Position numbers and translations under genes: made by a program
Source: a virus
DNA length: 64,000 nt
Reading direction: 5' to 3' (one strand)
Virus record (IMG/VR): IMGVR_UViG_3300041955_000531
In this document: positions 3,665-57,993 of the stretch, one piece after another
How the letters are laid out: every line of letters begins with the position of its first letter
Numbering within the stretch: the stretch's first letter is position 1
Notes under the pieces: generated by a model
The model's database searches: none
Told to the model about the DNA's origin: nothing
Seen by the model: only the letters and a program-made list of their open reading frames with translations

Positions 3665-6600
3665 ATGGCAACCTGGCACCAAAAGCATTTCTTTCACGTT
3701 CTCGACGTCGAGACCACAGGCCTGTCCGCTGGACATAAGAATACAGGCCTGCTCCAGATCTTCGCTTCAAAACTCCCTCCTTACGTAGCATCCCCGTTTC
3801 ACCCCACCACGTTAGTAAAACCCCGCACAGGATACACCGATCCTGTGAGCGGGGTTCACATTCCATTTGCATACAACTATGAGAAAGGTCAGCATGTTCT
3901 TTCTCAGGCCATGAAGCTTGGCCAGGAGAGTGAAGAAGAGTCAGCTCGACGCTTCTTTGCTTCCGCTGAAGAAGAGCTGTCTCGTAAGAAGCGTTTCCTG
4001 CTAACTGGCTGGAACGTCAAATATGATACTGGTGTGCTCACTGAGATCGCCAATCGTTATCCCAGCCTGCATGGATACAAAGACTTCTTCCAGCGCAAGG
4101 GGGTAAAGGTCTTCGGTCTGGAGCAGTCGTTCTTCGAACTTGCTTTGGGCTATGGTCAAGACAACCCAGAGTTCGCAGAACGTTACCTGCGTATGGGTCC
4201 TTCCACACCTATTACCAAGACTACAGGTCCTGGTATGCTGGCACGTAATGTTGAAGAGATGCAATGGGTGCCTGGCTGGAAGGTGGAGAATATTGCTGGA
4301 GCGGCTGGCGGGATGGAACGACTGCTGGGTCCTAAGCTGGCTGGGGCTGCTGGGTATCATGAGGCCGTGACTGACGTCAAGGTCGAGCAGACTCTCTTTG
4401 AGCGCCTGCGCACAGCCAGAAAGAATCTGCAGCGCGGTCACAGCTGGGAAGAAGCTCTTGGATCCGCACAACTCTTACCTGAAGGTGAGACTGCGGAGAC
4501 GTTCTTCTCCAAGATCTATGCCAACCCGTGGGCTGAGAAAGTAGCTGCTCAGGCTGAGCGTGGCGCCAAGGTCCTGCCCAAGAAGATGAGCGGTATAGGG
4601 AAGGGTCTTTCTCTCGCTCTTGTATTCGCCGGTGCAGCAACTGCAGCCTGGGCTATTGCTAGCAGCAAGCGAAGTGATCGCCAGACTCAGATCACTGGTC
4701 TCAGTGATACAGGTATGGCTGCTGACAGCCGTCATAAACTTACTGATTTCGGTTCAGGTTGGCAAGGACAAGATAATAGCCATACACTGCGACTGGCTAG
4801 TCTTCTGGTCGGTGGCGCCGCAGTCTTGGGAGCTCACAAGTTTGCTCTCGAGAACTGGTCTGGCTACGCAGAAGGAATCTATCAGTTTGCGAAGAAGATA
4901 GAGACTCGTTCTCCTGGTGCAATCTTTGGCACCTTCAGATTCTCTGAGCGAATGTCCAGCTACCTGCCTGAGGAAGTCTCCTTCAAGGCCGAGCAGTTGG
5001 TGCGTGGTTCAGAGCTTACCGAAATGGGTAAGCACATCCAGCGATTGATTGGTGTCAGCGCCCTGGATAAACGCTTTGCTAAAGAGGGAATGAGATTCAC
5101 TAGAACTTCAGCTTCCTCTCCATACTTGAGTTTGGTTGGTGGAAGAGGCGAATCTATTCGCTTTGCCCAGCGCGGACGGCTGACAGGTTCGGCTGCTTCG
5201 TTCGGTGGCCCACTCAAAGAACAGGTATTCCCTCGTACCCTGACTACTGAGGGTCCTCTGGCTGAGATGTGGGAGATGTTCCAGAATCTCCGCGGTAGTC
5301 AGAGACCAGGCACTCCTCTTACCAAAGGTCAGGCATTCAAGCAACAAGCTGGTGGAGAGTTCCGCTTCTTCGAACCTCTCTACGGCCGCAAGCCTGGATT
5401 CGTAGGTGGTGTAGAGTCTGCTTATAGAACAGGACAGCGTGCACTGTTTGAAGCTGCCGAGCGTCCTCTTCGCCTGCTGTCTGATATCGGTATGGGTCTG
5501 CCTAAAGGCTCATACAACAAGCTGTTCCACATCCCATTCCATGGCGAAGGTGGAATGCTCAATGCGTTGATGCTCAAGCGCGTGCTGCCTGCATATCTTG
5601 CTATCACGGCCGCGCGTTACATCAACTACCAGCTGGACAACAAACCAGCTGAGAAGCTCGCCGAGATACCACTCAAAGCTCACCTCGCTTGGGCGCGCGC
5701 AACAGATACAATCCCGGGTCTTCGTGCGATCACCGACAAGTATGAGGAGATCGTACCAGGTCCACAGTACGGTCCTGCAGCCATACCGATCGGTGCTGGT
5801 GCTATCGGTGCGGGTATTCACTGGTTCAACATCGCTCGCGGAGCAGAAGAGTTCCAAGTTCATGCTGCTCGAGCCGCTGCTTCTCGCAAGGCCTTCTGGA
5901 AGGGATTCGGTATAGGAGTCCTCATTGCTGCACCATTTATCCCTGGGATGATTGGCAGCCGCAAGACCGAAGACGAACTGCAACGTATCTACTCTGGTGA
6001 AGAAGAAGTTCCAGTCCGTGCAGGTCGTTGGTGGGATGTAGGTTCCACTCCATTCAGTGGCGGTCGCATCAAGTACTTCCGTCCGCACTGGTATCAGTTG
6101 ATGAAGTCCAAGGCCGAGATGGTCTCGACTTATGGATCAGAAGATGCTTATTGGGAACACCACCCACTGCTACATCCGTTCAAGTATATCAAGGATCCAT
6201 ACTGGCTAGAACGCGCGAACTATGCTAGCCGTCCGTATCCAATCACCTCGCCTGCGTTCTCCAACGTTCCTCTCATCGGTCCGTTGCTAGCTGCCACAAT
6301 CGGCCGCATCGTAAAGCCACCACAGAGAATGCACGAGGGCGAATGGGATATCAACAACTATACGTTGTATAGCCCACGTCTGGAACCCAACATGGAGTTG
6401 GGTGGTCTGCCGCCATCCAAGCCTCGTGAGGAGTTCGGCTTCAAGGATGTAGCTACCCGTGAAGCTGTGTCCTTCGCTGAATACACAGGTCTGCCTGGTT
6501 TCATTGCTACGACACTCTATGGCCAAGCAGGCCCACAAGGAACTCCTGGCAAGGATGTGATCCTGCAGGGCAGCCGCCAGATGACAAACCTGGCTCGCCA

Positions 6601-11600: not shown

Positions 11601-13434
11601 CCTGGGTAAGCTGGCACATGGCGGTGGTAGCAACCTCTATGAAAAGATTGGTGAGGGTCTTACTTATAGCCCCACGGATTATGAAAAGACACTGGCGGAT
11701 GTAGTCAAGTGGCAGAAGGATCCCGTCATGATGTCCGCGGCGATCTCTGCCCACCTCGATGAAGCTCAGCGTGTACTGTTCGGAAAGGAAGGATTCTACC
11801 GTGCCCGCGGCACAGATGTTCTGGGAGCTGTGTCTGGCTTCATTCAGACGCGCGCCCAGGAAAACCCATTTGAACTCCTTATCAATGAGCAGATGGCCGG
11901 CCGAGTCCGCGACCCTGAGATCCGTAAAGCATTACTCGCCGGAGAAGATATCTACGCTACGGCTGCTCGTCACCCTATTCAGTCAGCTCCTTACATGCGT
12001 GTGAAGGTGGCTCCTGATGCTGGCATGGGTCCTAACATGGTCGGTATGGATGAGCGCATCCGTGGCTTGTTCGGCGCCGATGATGATAAGGATATCCTGA
12101 ATCTGTTCTTCTATCGCAAGGGTTCTCAAGCCGAACGTGAAGCCCAAGCTGCTATCAATGCTCTGAATAGCAACCAGTGGAGAAGCCTGAAGACCCTTGA
12201 GATGCTGTACGGGAGCGTTGAAGACTCACGCAACATCGCAGAAGCTGGTGTGAAGACTCTGCCTTCTATGCTTGAAGAAAGTCTTAAGTTGGCTAGTGCA
12301 GGTGGAAGAGCAGAACAAGTCACACAGCGTATGGCTGGTGGTGTGGTTGGTGCTTACTCGAACTTGCTGACTCGTTTGTACATGAACGTCGAGATGCATC
12401 CTACGATCGGTGTGAAGCCGATGGAAAGAGATCTCCTCGGTCACATGCTGTGGACGATCCGTCAGGTACCTATCTCTGCCCAGAAGGGCAAGATGAAGTT
12501 GAATCCTGAGGATCCTCTGGGGTTGTACAGAAGACTGGTAGGTGGTTTGGAATCTCGCACGCCAGAAGGTGTGGCTAAGTTCACCGAAGGTATGAGAGAA
12601 GTCATCGCTGGTTACGGTAAGGAATCGATCATTACCGCAGAGACTGCTCCTTTGTTTGAAGAGCTTACTGGGATGAAGGTAGCTCCTGGCACTAAGCGGA
12701 ATGTCTTGATGGACGTGCTGGACTCCGAGAAGTTCCAAGGTACACTCTCCGAGTTTATCACAGGACGTAATGTTAGGGCAGATCGTGCTGCCGAGCTTCT
12801 GACTAAGGCAACTACGGATATGGAGGGTGATTCCCTCTATCGTCTGCAAGCTTTGTACAAGGAGATGGGTACGCCTCCTCCTTGGTTGATTGGCCTGGCG
12901 CGCGAGAAAGGCTCGGGGATGTCTGTATCCAAGGTCCTCGGAGCTATCAATGAAGGCCTCAAGAGTACTTATAGAGAGTCCAAAGGTAACCTAGGTGTTC
13001 TGGCTATTGGAGTCGGAGCCGCGGCTGTAGGAGCAGTTCTTACCAGCCATGTCAAGAAGGTTACTCCGACGCAGGCTACTTTCGGTCGGCCGCGTGGGAA
13101 CTTCAGACCAGAGACTACCGAGACTGTAACAGATCAAGTCCCGGGCGAGCCAATAACCGGTGCTATGTCTTCTGTTAACCCACCTCGTCGTCAGCTTCCT
13201 CTGCGTGGTGGTACATCTACAACGATCGTGGCGCCAATGCGCCAGCGTACAGATCTGGAAGTAAGAATGAAGGCTCAGAATCGCCAGGATACGATTGAAA
13301 TGCAACGTATGATTAGTCAGATCTCTGGCAATAATGGTGTATCAAATATCAATGTGAACTATCGCAACGGATGGAGAAACAAGATGAGTACTCTCCGCCG
13401 TCGTGAGACGATTCGAGAACAACTGGAATCCTAA
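8665..13434 (+). CDS. Putative virion single-chain two-barrel (DPBB) RNA polymerase
   Basis: Collinear motifs: GEGDIILHEKF and ETGAKIDIAGVKG (beta-like), then LFGKEGFYR, ARHP and FGADDDKD (beta'-like DxDxD), then GVVGAYSN and QVPISAQKG. Confidence 0.75.
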   Translation: MFTGFLKAVKSLATEHPGVAFATAFASATAPIFLRDENRGYFRTAVITTPIVAAMGLAGPGLVTSASRTARAGMQFAREMPMFFGSNKATRFKDLRSALEKTGGGAGALNPIFRTWADNAAVDFFSQVDRGGPPIEKSMEQAENLFHELLGMSNKRDLLTYAVEGARQRVASPLDLTRVARGGPLAGMAESELRGIVNANRADPRFVKELSSRLGWAKKLKDLGPFANPLKMSMTGKTTSMEWLEAYGQLHGQRPEVADAIQRAIRQGQVSSATVVAEQVADGTVGRMLGVNIKGPKGELHIPLFDPKTGSVNIEGKVGVGRHIHTPERVFELDTFVAEHLTQDWGKLKGDIGRAAYFGGVVPEDPFKLQTRLESQLANLSPQALYIRSRAAIPSSLPVYGGKVFEDLSDLERIQYTIKMLGRGMTRIGSEGGTSKGVFEFAESELYIPGGAPSLAKQTYFYRSFTKDLQLKAETIGEEFRPSFTTSAVESIGGVPEIQMSVAGVSPQQKSLFGDLPKTAEGLAGYKETAIQRILADNPKLTRAQAEAAWGKISGKLGEKGYLEAGRGLGGLGEGDIILHEKFRRLKMESRKNVYVDKLHLNPEDYIKKSLSPETLIGFEGLNPVTSEAPSTFIEGWSTTPSGQFELKLRQEYPVETGAKIDIAGVKGLAIVPEEDIFRRQVELLNLYGEATGSKTAIPSFVEALAPLHYMQAKTSDPFRLMVSQAAAVSSDIAANSVHLKADWANLEALDRVDKYMADLAAQGIRAQRTGTGNNVFRLLEDSEYVRSLDLEGRRLRMQSVGQLTEDYLRDVAGFAQRGAPGTEGELFSAFRRSGEESLMNYMQKNAMFSFAAFWDSTRRNVPQMVGATYDMFSEMWRAGNVEGMRELMSRLDFHGGDPGRASAFAAQFVGGDFTKPLGTVIPIEEAAANLRIGMMEGRVGGIFDPSNKLVQENFSIKLDQPVYARVAGRDLEVTHIPVLGKLAHGGGSNLYEKIGEGLTYSPTDYEKTLADVVKWQKDPVMMSAAISAHLDEAQRVLFGKEGFYRARGTDVLGAVSGFIQTRAQENPFELLINEQMAGRVRDPEIRKALLAGEDIYATAARHPIQSAPYMRVKVAPDAGMGPNMVGMDERIRGLFGADDDKDILNLFFYRKGSQAEREAQAAINALNSNQWRSLKTLEMLYGSVEDSRNIAEAGVKTLPSMLEESLKLASAGGRAEQVTQRMAGGVVGAYSNLLTRLYMNVEMHPTIGVKPMERDLLGHMLWTIRQVPISAQKGKMKLNPEDPLGLYRRLVGGLESRTPEGVAKFTEGMREVIAGYGKESIITAETAPLFEELTGMKVAPGTKRNVLMDVLDSEKFQGTLSEFITGRNVRADRAAELLTKATTDMEGDSLYRLQALYKEMGTPPPWLIGLAREKGSGMSVSKVLGAINEGLKSTYRESKGNLGVLAIGVGAAAVGAVLTSHVKKVTPTQATFGRPRGNFRPETTETVTDQVPGEPITGAMSSVNPPRRQLPLRGGTSTTIVAPMRQRTDLEVRMKAQNRQDTIEMQRMISQISGNNGVSNINVNYRNGWRNKMSTLRRRETIREQLES

Positions 13435-28091: not shown

Positions 28092-30722
28092 ATGCCTTCT
28101 ACTCCATCTCTCTATCGCTATATTGACTTCATCGGGGGTAACATCCTCGATGCCAGCAACGTGACGTTGCTGCAGACTATACTCGAGGGTCGCTCGGTCT
28201 CCGCGGTGAACGGAATCACGGGTATGGCACAGCTGTTTGCGCAAGGTACGCTGCTCAACTGTGTGTTCAATATCACTGGCTCCACGATCGTAATGACGCA
28301 TGCAAATGCTAGCTATCCAATCTATGTATTGGTGAACGATCGCTTTGAATCACTTGGTAATACTGTTACGATCGCCGGCTCGCAGCCAGGTTCTGGCACG
28401 GTAAACCTCTATTTGAACTGGGCATGGAATCAAGTTACCAGTGCAACCGATCCATCATTCCTTGATGGTATTACTGGCCAGCCTACGATTCAGGCTGGGC
28501 AGTTGGCATTGGATGTAGACTGGGCAGACACTCATGGCTCTCCAAGTCCAACTCAGTTTGCAATAAACTCTGCGCCGATCGTCCTGGCTATCTTCAATAT
28601 GAGTGCTACACCGAATGTAACGGTCACTTACATCAACGGTGTGCTTCCTTATGCTCAAGGCAATCCTAATCAAGCTGGACTGGTAGCTCTTACAGATGAT
28701 TCTGGTCTTGCTGTTGGCAGTACAGATTCTCGTCTGAGTGATGAACGTGTTCCTGCACCAGGAAGCGTTTATAGCTCCTCGGTTGCCACATTGTTGGTGA
28801 CAGGTATACGTAGTTCTGGTTTGCCAGCTTGGCTGCCAGGTCTCGCCGCTCCAGGAGCAGAAGTAGTAGACTCTGCTGGGAATCTCGAGACTTGTATCGG
28901 TACAGTGATAACCGCTCAGGCTGTAGTACCTTGGATACCTGCGGATATCCCTGCAACACTCGTAACTGACCTCTACTACAATAATGTACCTGGCGGACCT
29001 GCCTGGGGTTGGAACCCCGTTATTGGCAATCTTACACTTCAGATCATCGCCAATAACGTCGGTGCTGCTTTGTGGTGGGCATGGCGGAATGGTGGACCAG
29101 CAGGTGTACCTGCTTATAGCCCGACAGCTTCTGTTGCTTTCACCCTCACAGGCGTTACAGTTTCTGGAAATACCGCAATCTATGCTGGAGCTATTACAGG
29201 CACTATCGGTAGTGAACCTATCACTGGTGCTGCTAGTGCTCTTGCTGGCTTGCGCTTTACCATTACAGGATTTACCAATGCAGGAAACAACGGTCCAGAG
29301 TTGCTCTGCACCTCTTCTACTGCTACAAGCCTGACGTTAGTAAATCAGTATGCAGTACCAGAAGGCCCAGGAACATATACAGCCACTCTCAATCAGGGTG
29401 GTGTCTCCAGCGATGATCTCATCTATTCAACTCAAAGCCAGACTGTAACACAAGCTCTGGACGCATTGAATGCTGGGTTGGCTGGTAGTGGTACAGTCAA
29501 GTCCGTTTTCGGCCGCACTGGAATCGTAGTAGCCCAAGCCGGGGACTATACAGCTTCTCAGGTTGGCGCTGCTCCTTCTTCCCACGTTGGTCTACAGCTG
29601 GGATTACCTGCAAGTCACCCTGCTTCCGTGACTTCTAACACAAGTGGTTTCACAGTTAATGAGGGTGTGGGTGCTTTGTCTGGTGATGCGGTTGCTTTGC
29701 TGGATAGCGCCAGTTCTCGTAAGGCAGCTATCACTCACAGCGGAGATATCTATTCCCTATTGGCGAATGCAGCTAATGCTCAAGGTAAGAGTGGAACCGG
29801 CGGGCCGGCTACCTATCGTGGCACTTTGGGACTTATGTCCCTGATTGCTAACGTACTCGCTGAGCACGTTAACTATAACACCTCGCCCAATAACAATCCT
29901 CATGGTTTGACTGCAGGGGATATCGGTGCAGCCAGCGAGACTTATGTTAATACCACCGTGGCTGGTATTATCTCAGATGTCACCGCTTATACTGATGCAA
30001 AGACAAACATCTCTATTCGTGTTGTGACTACTCCTGGACCTGCCTTCCCGAATGACATGATCAATCCTGCGGGCGGAAGTACGACAGGTCAGCCTGGGTT
30101 GCCCCATAACTCTCCAGGTCAAGCAGCTATTGCTTACCCAAGTACTTCGGCTTCTATTACCTATGTCATCGTGAACTTTGGCGGCTTCTTCGAAATCGCT
30201 TTCGGTAACGGTGTGTACGCTGGTACTCAGCAAGTAGCTCTGCCTGAAGCAACAGGTTGGAGTGGTACAAACTTCTATGCTAGTGCCTCATTGTCGTTTG
30301 CTATGGATATCACCTATGATACCAAGGGCAACTATTATGAAGCCGTCGTTAATAATAGTACTCGTATTGTCAAGGTCATTGGTACAGCTGATGAGAGCCA
30401 CAACTACGTATGGAACGGTATCGCTGCAGTAACAGCGATTGCATGGAGAAATCTGACTGCGAATGCATTGATCATCAGTGCATTCGATACAACAACTCAG
30501 ACCTTCAACCAGGGTTCTGTTGGAAACACTGTTCAGATACAAGGTCGTAACTTTGGCAGCTCCGGCACACTTTCTTTCAATGGCTATGCTGCGTCAATCT
30601 CTGGCTACTCTTCGACAAGTATTACTTGCACAATCCCTGGGACTGCAACAACAGGTGTTCTGACTGTTACCCCAACAGGTGGTACGCCAGTTAGCAGCCC
30701 ATTCGTCTTTACAATCGTGTAA
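28092..30722 (+). CDS. Tail fibre protein with C-terminal IPT/TIG domain
   Basis: VKSVFGRTGIVVAQAGDYTASQVGA and NNPHGLTAGDIGA fibre motifs; GSVGNTVQIQGRNFG...SITCTIPGTATTG IPT domain. Confidence 0.8.
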   Translation: MPSTPSLYRYIDFIGGNILDASNVTLLQTILEGRSVSAVNGITGMAQLFAQGTLLNCVFNITGSTIVMTHANASYPIYVLVNDRFESLGNTVTIAGSQPGSGTVNLYLNWAWNQVTSATDPSFLDGITGQPTIQAGQLALDVDWADTHGSPSPTQFAINSAPIVLAIFNMSATPNVTVTYINGVLPYAQGNPNQAGLVALTDDSGLAVGSTDSRLSDERVPAPGSVYSSSVATLLVTGIRSSGLPAWLPGLAAPGAEVVDSAGNLETCIGTVITAQAVVPWIPADIPATLVTDLYYNNVPGGPAWGWNPVIGNLTLQIIANNVGAALWWAWRNGGPAGVPAYSPTASVAFTLTGVTVSGNTAIYAGAITGTIGSEPITGAASALAGLRFTITGFTNAGNNGPELLCTSSTATSLTLVNQYAVPEGPGTYTATLNQGGVSSDDLIYSTQSQTVTQALDALNAGLAGSGTVKSVFGRTGIVVAQAGDYTASQVGAAPSSHVGLQLGLPASHPASVTSNTSGFTVNEGVGALSGDAVALLDSASSRKAAITHSGDIYSLLANAANAQGKSGTGGPATYRGTLGLMSLIANVLAEHVNYNTSPNNNPHGLTAGDIGAASETYVNTTVAGIISDVTAYTDAKTNISIRVVTTPGPAFPNDMINPAGGSTTGQPGLPHNSPGQAAIAYPSTSASITYVIVNFGGFFEIAFGNGVYAGTQQVALPEATGWSGTNFYASASLSFAMDITYDTKGNYYEAVVNNSTRIVKVIGTADESHNYVWNGIAAVTAIAWRNLTANALIISAFDTTTQTFNQGSVGNTVQIQGRNFGSSGTLSFNGYAASISGYSSTSITCTIPGTATTGVLTVTPTGGTPVSSPFVFTIV

Positions 30723-30723
30723 T

Positions 30724-32292
30724 ATGCCAACAGCCAATCGTGGAGTACAGTTCGTTTACTACACTCCGAATCTACCCAATAGGTCGATTCCGATAGCTCA
30801 TGTGTCTACTACGCCTGAGTCACCATCCCAGCTGACAGATGTGAACAATAACGTCTATCAGCCTGGCGCGCTGACAATGACGCAGTTGACTACTCCCTTT
30901 ACAGTGTTTACTGCTCCTGCCCTACAATCCTCTATATCTATCTCTGGGGCTACGCAGTATCAGTTTGCGAACCAGTTCTTCGAACTGACTGATCAGGTTG
31001 ATGGGTCTGGGAGTCCGCTGTATTACCAGCACTATCTGCCCACTGAGGTATCAAACGTAACGATCTTAGATCTGAATGGTAATACTGTAGCAACTCCGAC
31101 TATGACATCTACATCAGGTCCTATTATTCGTTCACTGACTCGGGGAAGTGTCACAGCTAACTTCCTGCTTCACTCCTTCCCGAGTGTCAACAATACTACC
31201 TTGCCTTACGTGCAGTATCAGGTGCGTTATATCGATGATGTTGGCTTCCTCCATCTGGAGATCTTGAAGTTCTACAATGTAATCGCTCCCGCTGTGTTTA
31301 CGCCCAGCTCGAGTACATATGTAACCTCAACGATTGTTCTTACAGTCAATGCAATCACAGCTTACTATTTGAGATGGTATGCTCAGAACGGGTATCAAAT
31401 CCTGCAGCCGTACAACGACATTCCAAATGACCCTTGGCGCGCGCGTATACGATTCAGTCTGCAGAACATCCCGCCTGAATATGGCAATCAAGTATGGACT
31501 CCGCAAAAGCCTTACCAACTTGGTACCTGGGTCCCAGGAACTTCAACAGCGACGCACTTGATTCAGTTCGAGCGTCGTCCTATCCTCTATAACAACACCT
31601 ATCCTAATGTGTTGATATACGATAAGAACTATGTCTTGAAGTATGCCTTGGCTGGTCAGACAGGCAATGGTTTCCTGTATCCGTGGCGTCTCAATCAGTT
31701 CGTGGATATCGATCCTAATACTGGGGTTGTACAGGTGGCCGTCGAGACAGATCCAACGGACATCATATTCGGATTCTTCTCCTACCTGGAGCCAGATGTA
31801 GTCTTCACTGGCCTAGATATAAACCCATACACTAATCCGAGTGTTCGGAACAAAGTCATTTCGTTCTATCAAAAGACTAATGGGGAAGATCCTCTGCATT
31901 ACATCTACTACCAGGTACTGGATGAGAGCGGCAATGTAACTGCTACGAATGACCCAGCCCCTGCTACAGGAACCAACCATTTCTTTGGTACGATTCTGGT
32001 AGGCCAGGCTGTATCAGTGGGAGACTTCACCTTCACTGATGCACGCGTGCGTGGTGGCGGATTATCATCACTCTACCAGCACATTCCTCAGGCAGTCAAC
32101 TTCTGGGATCTTGGGTTCTGGGATGGCAAGCCCTTCCCGGCCGGCGGAGCAATGATGCTATATCTGCCAGTCACACTCCTATCGACATTCACTTCCGCGG
32201 AAGTATCACAGATCGTAAACGCCGTTGTGCCTATGGGCACAATACCAGTCATAGTCTACTATGATTCGGAAGGCAATGAGACGACAGTATAA
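30724..32292 (+). CDS. Virion structural protein
   Basis: Start moved to ATG 30724 just after the upstream stop; C-terminal DARVRGGGL...WDLGFWDGKPFP motif recalled from large-phage virion proteins. Confidence 0.65.
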   Translation: MPTANRGVQFVYYTPNLPNRSIPIAHVSTTPESPSQLTDVNNNVYQPGALTMTQLTTPFTVFTAPALQSSISISGATQYQFANQFFELTDQVDGSGSPLYYQHYLPTEVSNVTILDLNGNTVATPTMTSTSGPIIRSLTRGSVTANFLLHSFPSVNNTTLPYVQYQVRYIDDVGFLHLEILKFYNVIAPAVFTPSSSTYVTSTIVLTVNAITAYYLRWYAQNGYQILQPYNDIPNDPWRARIRFSLQNIPPEYGNQVWTPQKPYQLGTWVPGTSTATHLIQFERRPILYNNTYPNVLIYDKNYVLKYALAGQTGNGFLYPWRLNQFVDIDPNTGVVQVAVETDPTDIIFGFFSYLEPDVVFTGLDINPYTNPSVRNKVISFYQKTNGEDPLHYIYYQVLDESGNVTATNDPAPATGTNHFFGTILVGQAVSVGDFTFTDARVRGGGLSSLYQHIPQAVNFWDLGFWDGKPFPAGGAMMLYLPVTLLSTFTSAEVSQIVNAVVPMGTIPVIVYYDSEGNETTV

Positions 32293-47149: not shown

Positions 47150-47500
47150 TGGTGGAGGCGCGGGGAGTTGAACCCCGGTCCAAAAAGCATCACAACTGCG
47201 GTACTACATGCGTAGTCCTATCACTTCTATCGTCGGCCACAGTAAGCAAGGACAACTCTCTGTAGCCCCGTTCCCTATTGTTTTAAGCACTCATAGTTAG
47301 AGCAGCACTATGAATCACCGAGCCTGCTAGTTTACGCCCTAGCCCAGTCAGCAGACATCGCCAGGTAGGACGTGGCTGCATTAAGCAGCCAACGGCAGTT
47401 CAAAAGCTTCTGCAGTTAAAGTTTTCCATTCTCTTACGGTGGTATGGGCACCGGCATGCACCTAGGTCGATCAGGCTTCTGTCGAAACCAAGTCGCCCCC
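47150..47500 (-). ncRNA. ssrA: tmRNA; tag peptide (A)AEAFELPLAA* at 47413-47381
   Basis: 5' GGGGGCGACTTGGTTTCGAC, 3' GGGTTCAACTCCCCGCGCCTCCACCA, G3.U pair, 351 nt, tag ending in LAA. Confidence 0.97.
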
Positions 47501-56598: not shown

Positions 56599-56733
56599 CA
56601 ATAGCGCACGGCTTACATGACAACCGCGCTGGCCTTCCGGTGGGCCAACTTCCAAATCGTCCAGCGTCCCGAACGATTCAGCACCTGCCCTCGGTGTACA
56701 GAGGGGCTACCTTGTCACTTTTCGCGCTACCAA
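56599..56733 (-). ncRNA. Candidate multibranch structured RNA (about 135 nt)
   Basis: Closing stems GGTAGCGCG/TGCGCTATT and TGACAA/TTGTCA enclosing three hairpins. Confidence 0.55.
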
Positions 56734-56737
56734 TCTT

Positions 56738-56849
56738 TGGAGCTCCAGGTGGGTTTTTCACCATACCGATTTTCACCGGCAACAGGAGTTTAGCCTGCCA
56801 CGACCCCCGGATTAGAAGTCCGGTGCTCTAATAACTGAGCTACTGAAGC
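56738..56849 (-). tRNA. tRNA-Arg(TCT)-like with a 36-nt structured insertion in the T arm
   Basis: Normal acceptor (GCTTCAG/CTGGAGC-TCCA), D arm and anticodon arm (CT-TCT-AA); 112 nt in total. Confidence 0.75.
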
Positions 56850-56868
56850 TAGAAGCCTTCTCAATCTC

Positions 56869-57575: not shown

Positions 57576-57660
57576 TGGAGCAGGGTGGAGGACTCGAACC
57601 TCCGTGGATTTTACTCGCCGCATTACAGGTGCGGTGCTGTCGCCACTGAGCCAACCCTGC
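57576..57660 (-). tRNA. tRNA-Thr(TGT), C33, long variable region
   Basis: Stem CCGCA/TGCGG, loop CC-TGT-AA; G1-C72, C2-G71 and U73 are compatible with Thr. Confidence 0.78.
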
Positions 57661-57916: not shown

Positions 57917-57993
57917 TGGCGGGCCTGGAGAGATTCGAACTCTCTAGTTGGCAGGTTAGAACTCTGCTGCTCGTCCAATCGAGCTTCAAGCCC
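57917..57993 (-). tRNA. tRNA-Arg(TCT), imperfect anticodon stem
   Basis: GCAGA-GT-TCT-AA-CCTGC with an A31/C39 mismatch; GCCA. Confidence 0.75.

Follow-up and report, generated by a model that had tools for sequence, protein, structure and literature searches.

The odd member of the tRNA array

The window, a stretch of 64,000 nucleotides of viral DNA (IMG/VR record IMGVR_UViG_3300041955_000531), carries an array of 25 tRNA genes and one tmRNA gene, all of which were identified by ARAGORN on the minus strand between positions 47150 and 60558. The array adjoins baseplate and tail genes. On the same strand, at 56738-56849, lies the gene of a tRNA-like RNA of 112 nt (position p of the RNA is position 56850 - p of the window), for which ARAGORN, run on the window, gave no tRNA call.

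Reading of the minus strand gives a 7-bp acceptor stem, in which RNA positions 1-7 (56843-56849) pair with 102-108 (56742-56748), a D arm at RNA 10-25 (56825-56840) with a loop of 8 nt, an anticodon arm at RNA 27-43 (56807-56823) with a 5-bp stem, a 7-nt loop and UCU at 56814-56816, and a variable loop of 5 nt. These cloverleaf features, i.e. the acceptor, D and anticodon stems, are recognised both by direct reading and in the covariation analysis on 10 relatives. The T stem is split, with four pairs before and one pair after an insert of 36 nt at RNA 53-88 (56762-56797), the boundary of which can be slid by one G. The 5' strand of the outer T stem, RNA 49-52 (56798-56801), stands immediately 5' of the insert and pairs with 56749-56752; the inner T-stem pair, a 7-nt T loop and the 3' strand of the T stem make up RNA 89-101 (56749-56761). 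The remainder, RNA 102-112 (56738-56748), consists of the 3' strand of the acceptor stem, a U at the discriminator position and an encoded CCA. The insert forms two hairpins. Hairpin 1, at RNA 53-67 (56783-56797), has a stem of 4-5 bp and a loop of 7 nt and is present in all predicted folds, and hairpin 2, at RNA 70-85 (56765-56780), has a stem of 6-7 bp that is capped by a GNRA tetraloop (GAAA).

The anticodon loop of the window RNA, with its 7 nt, U33 and a purine at position 37, is a canonical Arg-UCU loop, and over its 5' two thirds the molecule is close to an ordinary tRNA-Arg(UCU) of bacterial type, with 93% identity to L006 across 30 nt. The canonical elbow, in which G18 and G19 meet T54-Psi55-C56, is missing, the D loop being without GG and the T loop without TTC. 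The continuous 5-bp T stem that characterises the Rfam tRNA family (RF00005) is likewise absent, 36 nt being placed between its pairs 4 and 5. The original prediction, made from the letters of the window, had described acceptor, D and anticodon arms, a CCA end, and a T stem broken by 36 nt in two hairpins; this anatomy proved correct in every detail, the absence of TTC from the T loop included. The second Arg(TCT) gene that it placed at 57917 corresponds to a canonical tRNA-Arg(tct) in the ARAGORN output, at 57917-57993, 1.1 kb upstream of the odd RNA.

The Rfam tRNA model recognises the gene with 34.2 bits (cut-off 29) over 56778-56849 only: the alignment stops inside the insert at 56778, and its 3' end is forced and partly mispaired. 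The homologue in L001 (see below) scores under this cut-off. Nothing besides tRNA was found in Rfam for the window RNA at E-values up to 10, and this includes intron families; the YrlA / bacterial Y RNA model gave no match either at the gathering threshold or at E-values up to 10.

No promoter-like or terminator-like site was found near the gene on its strand, from which we infer that it is co-transcribed with the array and receives tRNA-type end processing. In most relatives that possess a tRNA array the odd RNA is located in it shortly after the tRNA-Gly gene or genes. The locus is also a rearrangement hot spot: the window ceases to align with L001 precisely where tRNA-Gly(tcc) ends and aligns again just past the CCA. 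HNH genes are found close by.

Several further RNAs were observed next to the gene. In the window a conserved structured RNA with a zinc-ribbon mini-gene (56599-56737, minus strand) directly follows the odd tRNA, and the same pair of elements stands directly after it in L021 (14638 onward). In L001 the structured RNA extends from 12941 onward, about 670 nt from the odd tRNA, with an ORF (12506-12885) in between, and in L009 the two are separated by a Y-shaped RNA of 61 nt. The small downstream ORFs gave nothing above the Pfam cut-off, and their only recognisable character is that of a generic zinc ribbon. The Y-shaped RNA of about 61 nt, which adjoins the odd tRNA at L009:5038-5098 (plus strand), has similar counterparts in L230 (about 4246-4302, minus strand) and L001 (about 12272-12330, plus strand) and is missing from the window. 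It is composed of a tRNA-like closing stem of 8 bp, nearly identical in sequence to the acceptor stem of the family described below, a long hairpin with a GNRA cap, a short hairpin and a GCCA tail; its predicted fold has an energy of -40 kcal/mol (z = -6.4). Directly after the homologue in L230 a tRNA-like RNA of 100 nt is found (L230:4063-4162, minus strand), in which the D loop is enlarged by about 26 nt, the anticodon loop is closed up and the T loop has the canonical TTCGA.

Two observations concern the other tRNAs of the array. The tRNA-Thr(tgt) gene of the window (57576-57660, minus strand) is 85 nt long, compared with 83 nt in L009 and 75 nt in L001; in the window clade about 10 extra nt occupy its variable region, and a short stretch of it resembles the T-loop region of the odd tRNA of L009. 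In our own reading of the sequence, the working tRNAs of the window for Lys and Thr carry C33.

A family of tRNA-like RNAs with a conserved frame

Contigs of relatives were retrieved from IMG/VR, JGI, ENA and Logan by means of DNA patterns and of the relatives of a 298-aa protein, the gene of which lies 1.4 kb upstream of the odd tRNA (31 relatives, 50-100% identity). A custom covariance model (R1), built from the first three copies of the RNA, was then applied to them. The window gene scores 135 bits against R1, the window copy being one of the three source sequences of the model. The family comprises at least 11 distinct tRNA-like RNAs from related, uncultured jumbo phages of about 210 kb, and the R1 search of the fetched loci gave one homologue per phage lineage. 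The insert is present in L007, a copy from a second metagenome with the same sequence as that of the window, in L075 (111 nt) and in L009 (113 nt). Homologues in which it is absent are found in L001 (77 nt), L018 and L010 (76 nt each), L026 (74 nt), L021 (73 nt), L022 (about 75 nt), L014 (71 nt, with no recognisable anticodon arm) and L230 (76 nt). ARAGORN missed ten members of the family and called the eleventh, that of L230, a tRNA-Lys; L075 and L026 were outside this run.

The gene is retained, at shifting positions in the locus, in every relative whose contig reaches far enough downstream, with the exception of L023, where the downstream region is unrelated. The P0033 and P0035 contigs stop short of the locus, and the P0034 contig has an unrelated downstream region. 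A covariance alignment that presented the L022 copy as an insert-bearing RNA of 125 nt was rejected: this RNA ends at an internal acceptor strand with CCA (about 75 nt), and the remainder is a tRNA remnant. ARAGORN found no tRNA in the 14 kb of L022, in which the odd tRNA-like RNA nevertheless persists (L022:9323-9447, plus strand), followed downstream by the apparent 3' half of a lost tRNA.

Outside these loci, the region had no relative among GenBank phages, where all matches were to generic tRNAs, and the search with the baseplate protein retrieved distant myoviruses only. In a pattern scan of metagenomes L075 was the sole relevant locus among the matches listed, and more variants may exist. 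The metagenome contigs L028-L146 contain dozens of tRNA genes of 90-118 nt, with an acceptor starting GCCCCGG and extra sequence 3' of the anticodon; these look like archaeal intron-bearing tRNAs, unrelated to the window RNA. A match to the D-arm word in the genome_contigs set was set aside as a degenerate tRNA-Val-like stretch in a Chloroflexia MAG, also unrelated. A gene on a 237-kb IMG/VR contig of a different phage (L186:3149-3224, plus strand) is tRNA-Arg(CCU)-like, has a D loop without GG and a T loop without TTC, and scores 55 bits against R1; it may be a more distant member of the family.

The fold of the family is well preserved. Among 10 distinct members, standard pairs are found in 98.3% of the alignment cells, and 15 of the 31 pairs show double-sided changes. 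None of 500 shuffles reached the observed percentage of pairing or the covariation score, and in controls with slid partners the pairing falls to 31-51%. All 7 pairs of the acceptor stem are kept in the 10 members, 4 of them with double-sided changes; the fourth pair is U-G in 8 members, and pair 6-67, which spans the insert, is A-U in the window and G-C in L009, a compensatory change. The anticodon stem covaries in each of its 5 pairs across the family and the D stem shows no variation in the 10 members. In the outer T stem the 4 homologous pairs all covary across the family, yet the three insert-bearing variants have them unchanged. Conservation is greatest in the acceptor stem, the D stem and the U-CCA end, the last being invariant in 10 of 10 members. 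The neighbouring protein is 60-90% identical among the lineages in which the covariation is seen. Because the pairing has been kept and the acceptor, anticodon and T stems covary, the gene is not decaying: it is maintained by selection and is probably functional. This comparative evidence argues more strongly for a non-chance structure than do the MFE z-scores of the entire RNA (-2.4) and of its T domain (-2.1).

The loops have fared differently from this frame. GG is absent from the D loop throughout the family, and the T loop is without TTC in most members, with or without the insert. UCU is combined with U33 in the window and with A33 in L009, L001, L018 and L021; the loop has UUU with A33 in L230 and UAU in L022, and it is shortened to 6 nt in L075, L026 and L010. 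Every anticodon loop that is present has U-A-A at its end, like the tRNAs for ANN codons. The label tRNA-Arg(UCU), given in the original prediction, fits the UCU loop of the window; since this anticodon is not conserved among the relatives (UUU, UAU and the 6-nt loops), it names the RNA of the window genome only. The window RNA differs from that of L075 at 8 positions, 6 of them inside the 17-nt anticodon arm, and the flanks are about 90% identical. A generally fast evolution of the RNA was considered and dropped: its overall divergence is similar to that of the neighbouring canonical tRNAs, and its rate is not clearly higher, so that fast change is confined to the anticodon arm.

One of the relatives is complete. 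G001, the contig of L001, has 215 kb and contains a single copy of the family, without the insert. It encodes one T4 Rnl1-like RNA ligase and has two more ORFs that belong to the RNA ligase family PF09414, the three lying at 194727-195302, 198893-199528 and 214331-214735. The search of this genome found no RtcB and no EndA / archaeal-type splicing endonuclease (PF01974). A second small tRNA cluster (Ile, Leu, Lys) is located near 205 kb.

Gain and structure of the T-stem insert

The insert is shared by at least three sequence variants on at least four contigs (window, L007, L075 and L009) and is missing from L001, L018, L010, L026, L021, L022, L014 and L230. In the window sub-lineage it has a length of 36-37 nt and lies between T-stem pairs 4 and 5; at the same place the insert-less relatives have an unbroken T stem of 5 bp with a loop of 7 nt. 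Among the matches listed, L230 is the closest insert-less relative; its D loop is the same, its 5-bp T stem is continuous and its 7-nt T loop is similar. As the T stem of the insert-less relatives is intact exactly at this site, the insert is a clean gain that is specific for one clade. GG and TTC have been lost across the family regardless of the insert, which therefore did not replace the T loop.

The GNRA-capped hairpin 2 has changed in two compensatory pairs. In L075 a C-G pair is replaced by U-A, and in L009 a U-A pair is replaced by C-G, together with one extra pair and a GUAA loop; the GNRA loop is thus retained as GAAA or GUAA. Hairpin 1 is the same in all three variants, and covariation speaks neither for nor against it. 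What supports hairpin 1 and the outer T stem is energy, together with homology to the T stem that covaries across the family. The idea that the 36 nt represent an ordered insertion rather than decay is borne out by the intact T stem of the insert-less relatives, by the existence of three variants and by the compensation in hairpin 2, and the possibility that the insert is unique to one genome was looked at and does not hold, given its occurrence in L007, L075 and L009. The covariation among homologues that had been proposed as a check on the insert is seen in the two compensatory pairs of hairpin 2, whereas the invariant hairpin 1 gives no such signal.

With these two hairpins the T arm would likely become a small four-way junction. 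As the three insert-bearing copies show no change in either hairpin 1 or the outer T stem, it is homology and energy that argue for this modelled arrangement. In the MFE fold of the isolated T domain the GGUG that follows the insert pairs with the 3' strand instead. Of the 11-nt receptor for GAAA tetraloops (CCUAAG and UAUGG in one helix), UAUGG alone was found, directly 3' of hairpin 2; its counterpart in L009 is UACGG, together with a GUAA loop in hairpin 2. A BLAST search with the insert and T arm against the window, the first 27 loci and L075 gave no further copy, so that in those loci the insert is not a repeated mobile element.

Possible functions and comparison with known systems

The tRNA frame is under selection, and yet the anticodon, D and T loops, which are the parts relevant to translation, have all been altered; one sub-lineage has moreover added a structured module where EF-Tu contacts the T stem. 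In the interpretation that we favour, to which we give roughly an even chance, the RNA would be a tRNA-derived mimic that matures like a tRNA and keeps the insert as an expansion segment, and not an ordinary decoder. It would be cut from the array transcript in the manner of a tRNA, by RNase P at the 5' end and by a 3' nuclease at the CCA, and the insert would stay in the mature molecule. The look-alike may then interact with a tRNA-binding protein, for which a host nuclease aimed at ANN-reading tRNAs of the Arg-UCU and Lys-UUU type is the most plausible candidate. EF-Tu grips the part of the T stem in which the insert is located, and the ribosome and RNase P contact the adjacent elbow; from these known contacts, the lost elbow and the T-stem insert would be expected to keep the RNA from EF-Tu and the ribosome.

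The variable anticodons, A33, the 6-nt loops and the lack of an anticodon arm in L014 suggest that the family is not one of conserved decoders. In the window, moreover, the RNA would be redundant with the canonical tRNA-Arg(tct) 1.1 kb upstream. A context of conflict is suggested by the ligases of the complete relative and by C33 in other tRNAs of the window; T4 Rnl1 repairs tRNA-Lys that has been cut by anticodon nuclease. Against a mimic speak the fully canonical Arg-UCU anticodon loop of the window RNA and the acceptance by ARAGORN of the L230 homologue as a tRNA-Lys. The predicted four-way junction, with its backing from homology and energy and the alternative GGUG pairing, also counts on this side. 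On balance we consider a mimic more likely than a working arginine tRNA.

A working tRNA-Arg(UCU) would decode AGA with the insert in place, its odd elbow and insert serving to evade host tRNA nucleases or modification enzymes. We regard this as unlikely. By structural background the insert occupies the T-stem part that is gripped by EF-Tu, beside the elbow that meets the ribosome and RNase P; the array already has a canonical tRNA-Arg(tct); a discriminator U is unusual for Arg; and the loop has only 6 nt in L075, despite flanks that are about 90% identical, and A33 in other relatives. In favour of a working tRNA, the window copy has its stems intact, an encoded CCA, an anticodon loop of canonical form and a 5' part like that of bacterial-type tRNA-Arg(UCU), and the insert-less form in L230 is a tRNA-Lys for ARAGORN. 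Anticodon-loop changes by which phage tRNAs evade nucleases have moreover been described (PMC10264068). Somewhat more doubtful is a role as a processing signal, in which the tRNA shape would recruit RNase P and 3' trimming enzymes and so free a downstream mRNA consisting of the structured leader and the zinc ribbon. In the window and L021 the structured RNA indeed starts right after the CCA, conservation is highest in the acceptor stem and CCA, and no promoter or terminator was found nearby, but the elements are about 670 nt apart in L001 and have a 61-nt extra RNA between them in L009, and the context is different in L022 and L230. A mere cutting signal, furthermore, does not need conserved and covarying D, anticodon and insert hairpins.

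The original prediction had offered a non-canonical intron, an elbow-modified mimic and a nuclease decoy. Of these the intron has the least support, since a bulge-helix-bulge is lacking and the complete relative yielded neither EndA nor RtcB; we consider it very unlikely that the 36 nt are an intervening sequence, excised by an endonuclease, with the halves rejoined (e.g. by phage RNA ligases) to give a 76-nt tRNA with a T arm of normal length. It is true that deletion of RNA 53-88 gives exactly the 5-bp stem and 7-nt loop of the relatives, that the complete relative has the Rnl1-like ligase and two PF09414 ORFs, and that predicted introns termed 'enigmatic' have been reported in the tRNAs of megaphages (PMC6784885). 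The insert, with its 36 nt in the T stem, is however far below the size of group I and group II introns (the group I core has about 200 nt or more and usually resides in the anticodon loop), and Rfam gives a tRNA only. Both the consensus and the MFE prediction place the insert boundaries at helix ends of a multi-helix junction, unlike the bulge-helix-bulge arrangement, in which a 4-bp helix is flanked by two 3-nt bulges. The genome in which EndA-like endonuclease and RtcB were not found is itself without the insert. The restored RNA would remain without an elbow, and in L075 the product would have a 6-nt anticodon loop, so that little would be gained by splicing. A new kind of T-stem intervening sequence, which is cut by some nuclease and resealed by the phage Rnl-type ligases and would amount to protein-dependent tRNA splicing in a bacterial virus, seems to us highly improbable. 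Least probable of all is a decaying duplicate of a tRNA gene, with the insert as a neutral scar, for instance of homing-endonuclease traffic elsewhere in the array. The low Rfam score, the silence of ARAGORN, the nearby HNH genes and the rearrangement hot spot, with the L001 homology breaking exactly at the gene borders, would all agree with decay. It is contradicted by the pairing in 98% of the cells and the 15 double-sided pairs across lineages in which the neighbouring protein is 60-90% identical, by the compensatory changes within the insert, and by the retention of the gene in every relative with a contig that is long enough downstream, except L023 with its unrelated downstream region.

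If the RNA imitates the target of a tRNA-cutting defence or of a tRNA enzyme, as in the favoured reading of a mimic, it would represent a new class of phage counter-measure; if instead the insert is removed, bacterial viruses would have a new splicing route. In both cases these genes escape standard tRNA finders, and inventories of phage tRNAs are to that extent incomplete. Neither a tRNA decoy of this kind nor a T stem with a two-hairpin insert was found in the literature searches.

With the canonical ANN-reading tRNAs (Arg(UCU) and Lys(UUU); RF00005) the window RNA shares the cloverleaf, the 7-bp acceptor stem, CCA, the 5-nt variable loop and U36-A37-A38. It differs from them in the absence of GG and TTC, the 36-nt insert, the discriminator U and the variation of the anticodon among its relatives. 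Archaeal bulge-helix-bulge introns occur at non-canonical positions of tRNAs, T arms included, and are likewise short inserts in a tRNA arm. The junctions in the window, in contrast, show no bulge-helix-bulge fold, the setting is a bacteriophage with a tmRNA, and EndA was not found in the complete relative. Prediction settings for eukaryote tRNA introns place introns in the anticodon loop. It was with such settings that the 'enigmatic' introns in the tRNA genes of Lak megaphages were predicted (Devoto et al. 2019, PMC6784885), whereas the insert of the window lies in the T stem of a gene with a non-canonical elbow; the two have in common that extra, conserved sequence is found in phage tRNA genes of some genomes only, with no known route of removal.

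Two further cases can be regarded as functional analogies only. The phage tRNAs that escape host anticodon nucleases through changes in the anticodon loop (eLife 2023, PMC10264068) also belong to phage arrays facing tRNA-cutting defences and are also changed beside the cleavage-prone positions 32-34. They are working tRNAs with point changes, in contrast to the odd family with its additional elbow loss, some 6-nt loops and, in the window, the insert. The tRNA-Other of Bacillus cereus, a pseudo-tRNA with no role in translation (PMC3399842), is similarly a tRNA-shaped RNA with a role outside decoding, but it is chromosomal and bacterial and has no insert.

Finally, the closest things that have been described are the stable RNAs in phage tRNA clusters, i.e. 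RNA1 of T5, annotated as a 'tRNA-like stable RNA with unknown functions' (AY543070, 30501-30644), and RNAC and RNAD, stable RNAs in the tRNA cluster of T4 (PMC3014915). Like the 112-nt window RNA, they are tRNA-like, longer than a tRNA, located inside a phage tRNA cluster and co-oriented with it. R1 gave no match in the T5 region 29500-31500, and the T5 and T4 RNAs have been seen as stable molecules whereas the window RNA is known from DNA only. The family of the window RNA, with its selected tRNA frame and its altered loops, offers a tractable case of the stable tRNA-like RNAs of phage clusters that RNAC, RNAD and RNA1 exemplify.
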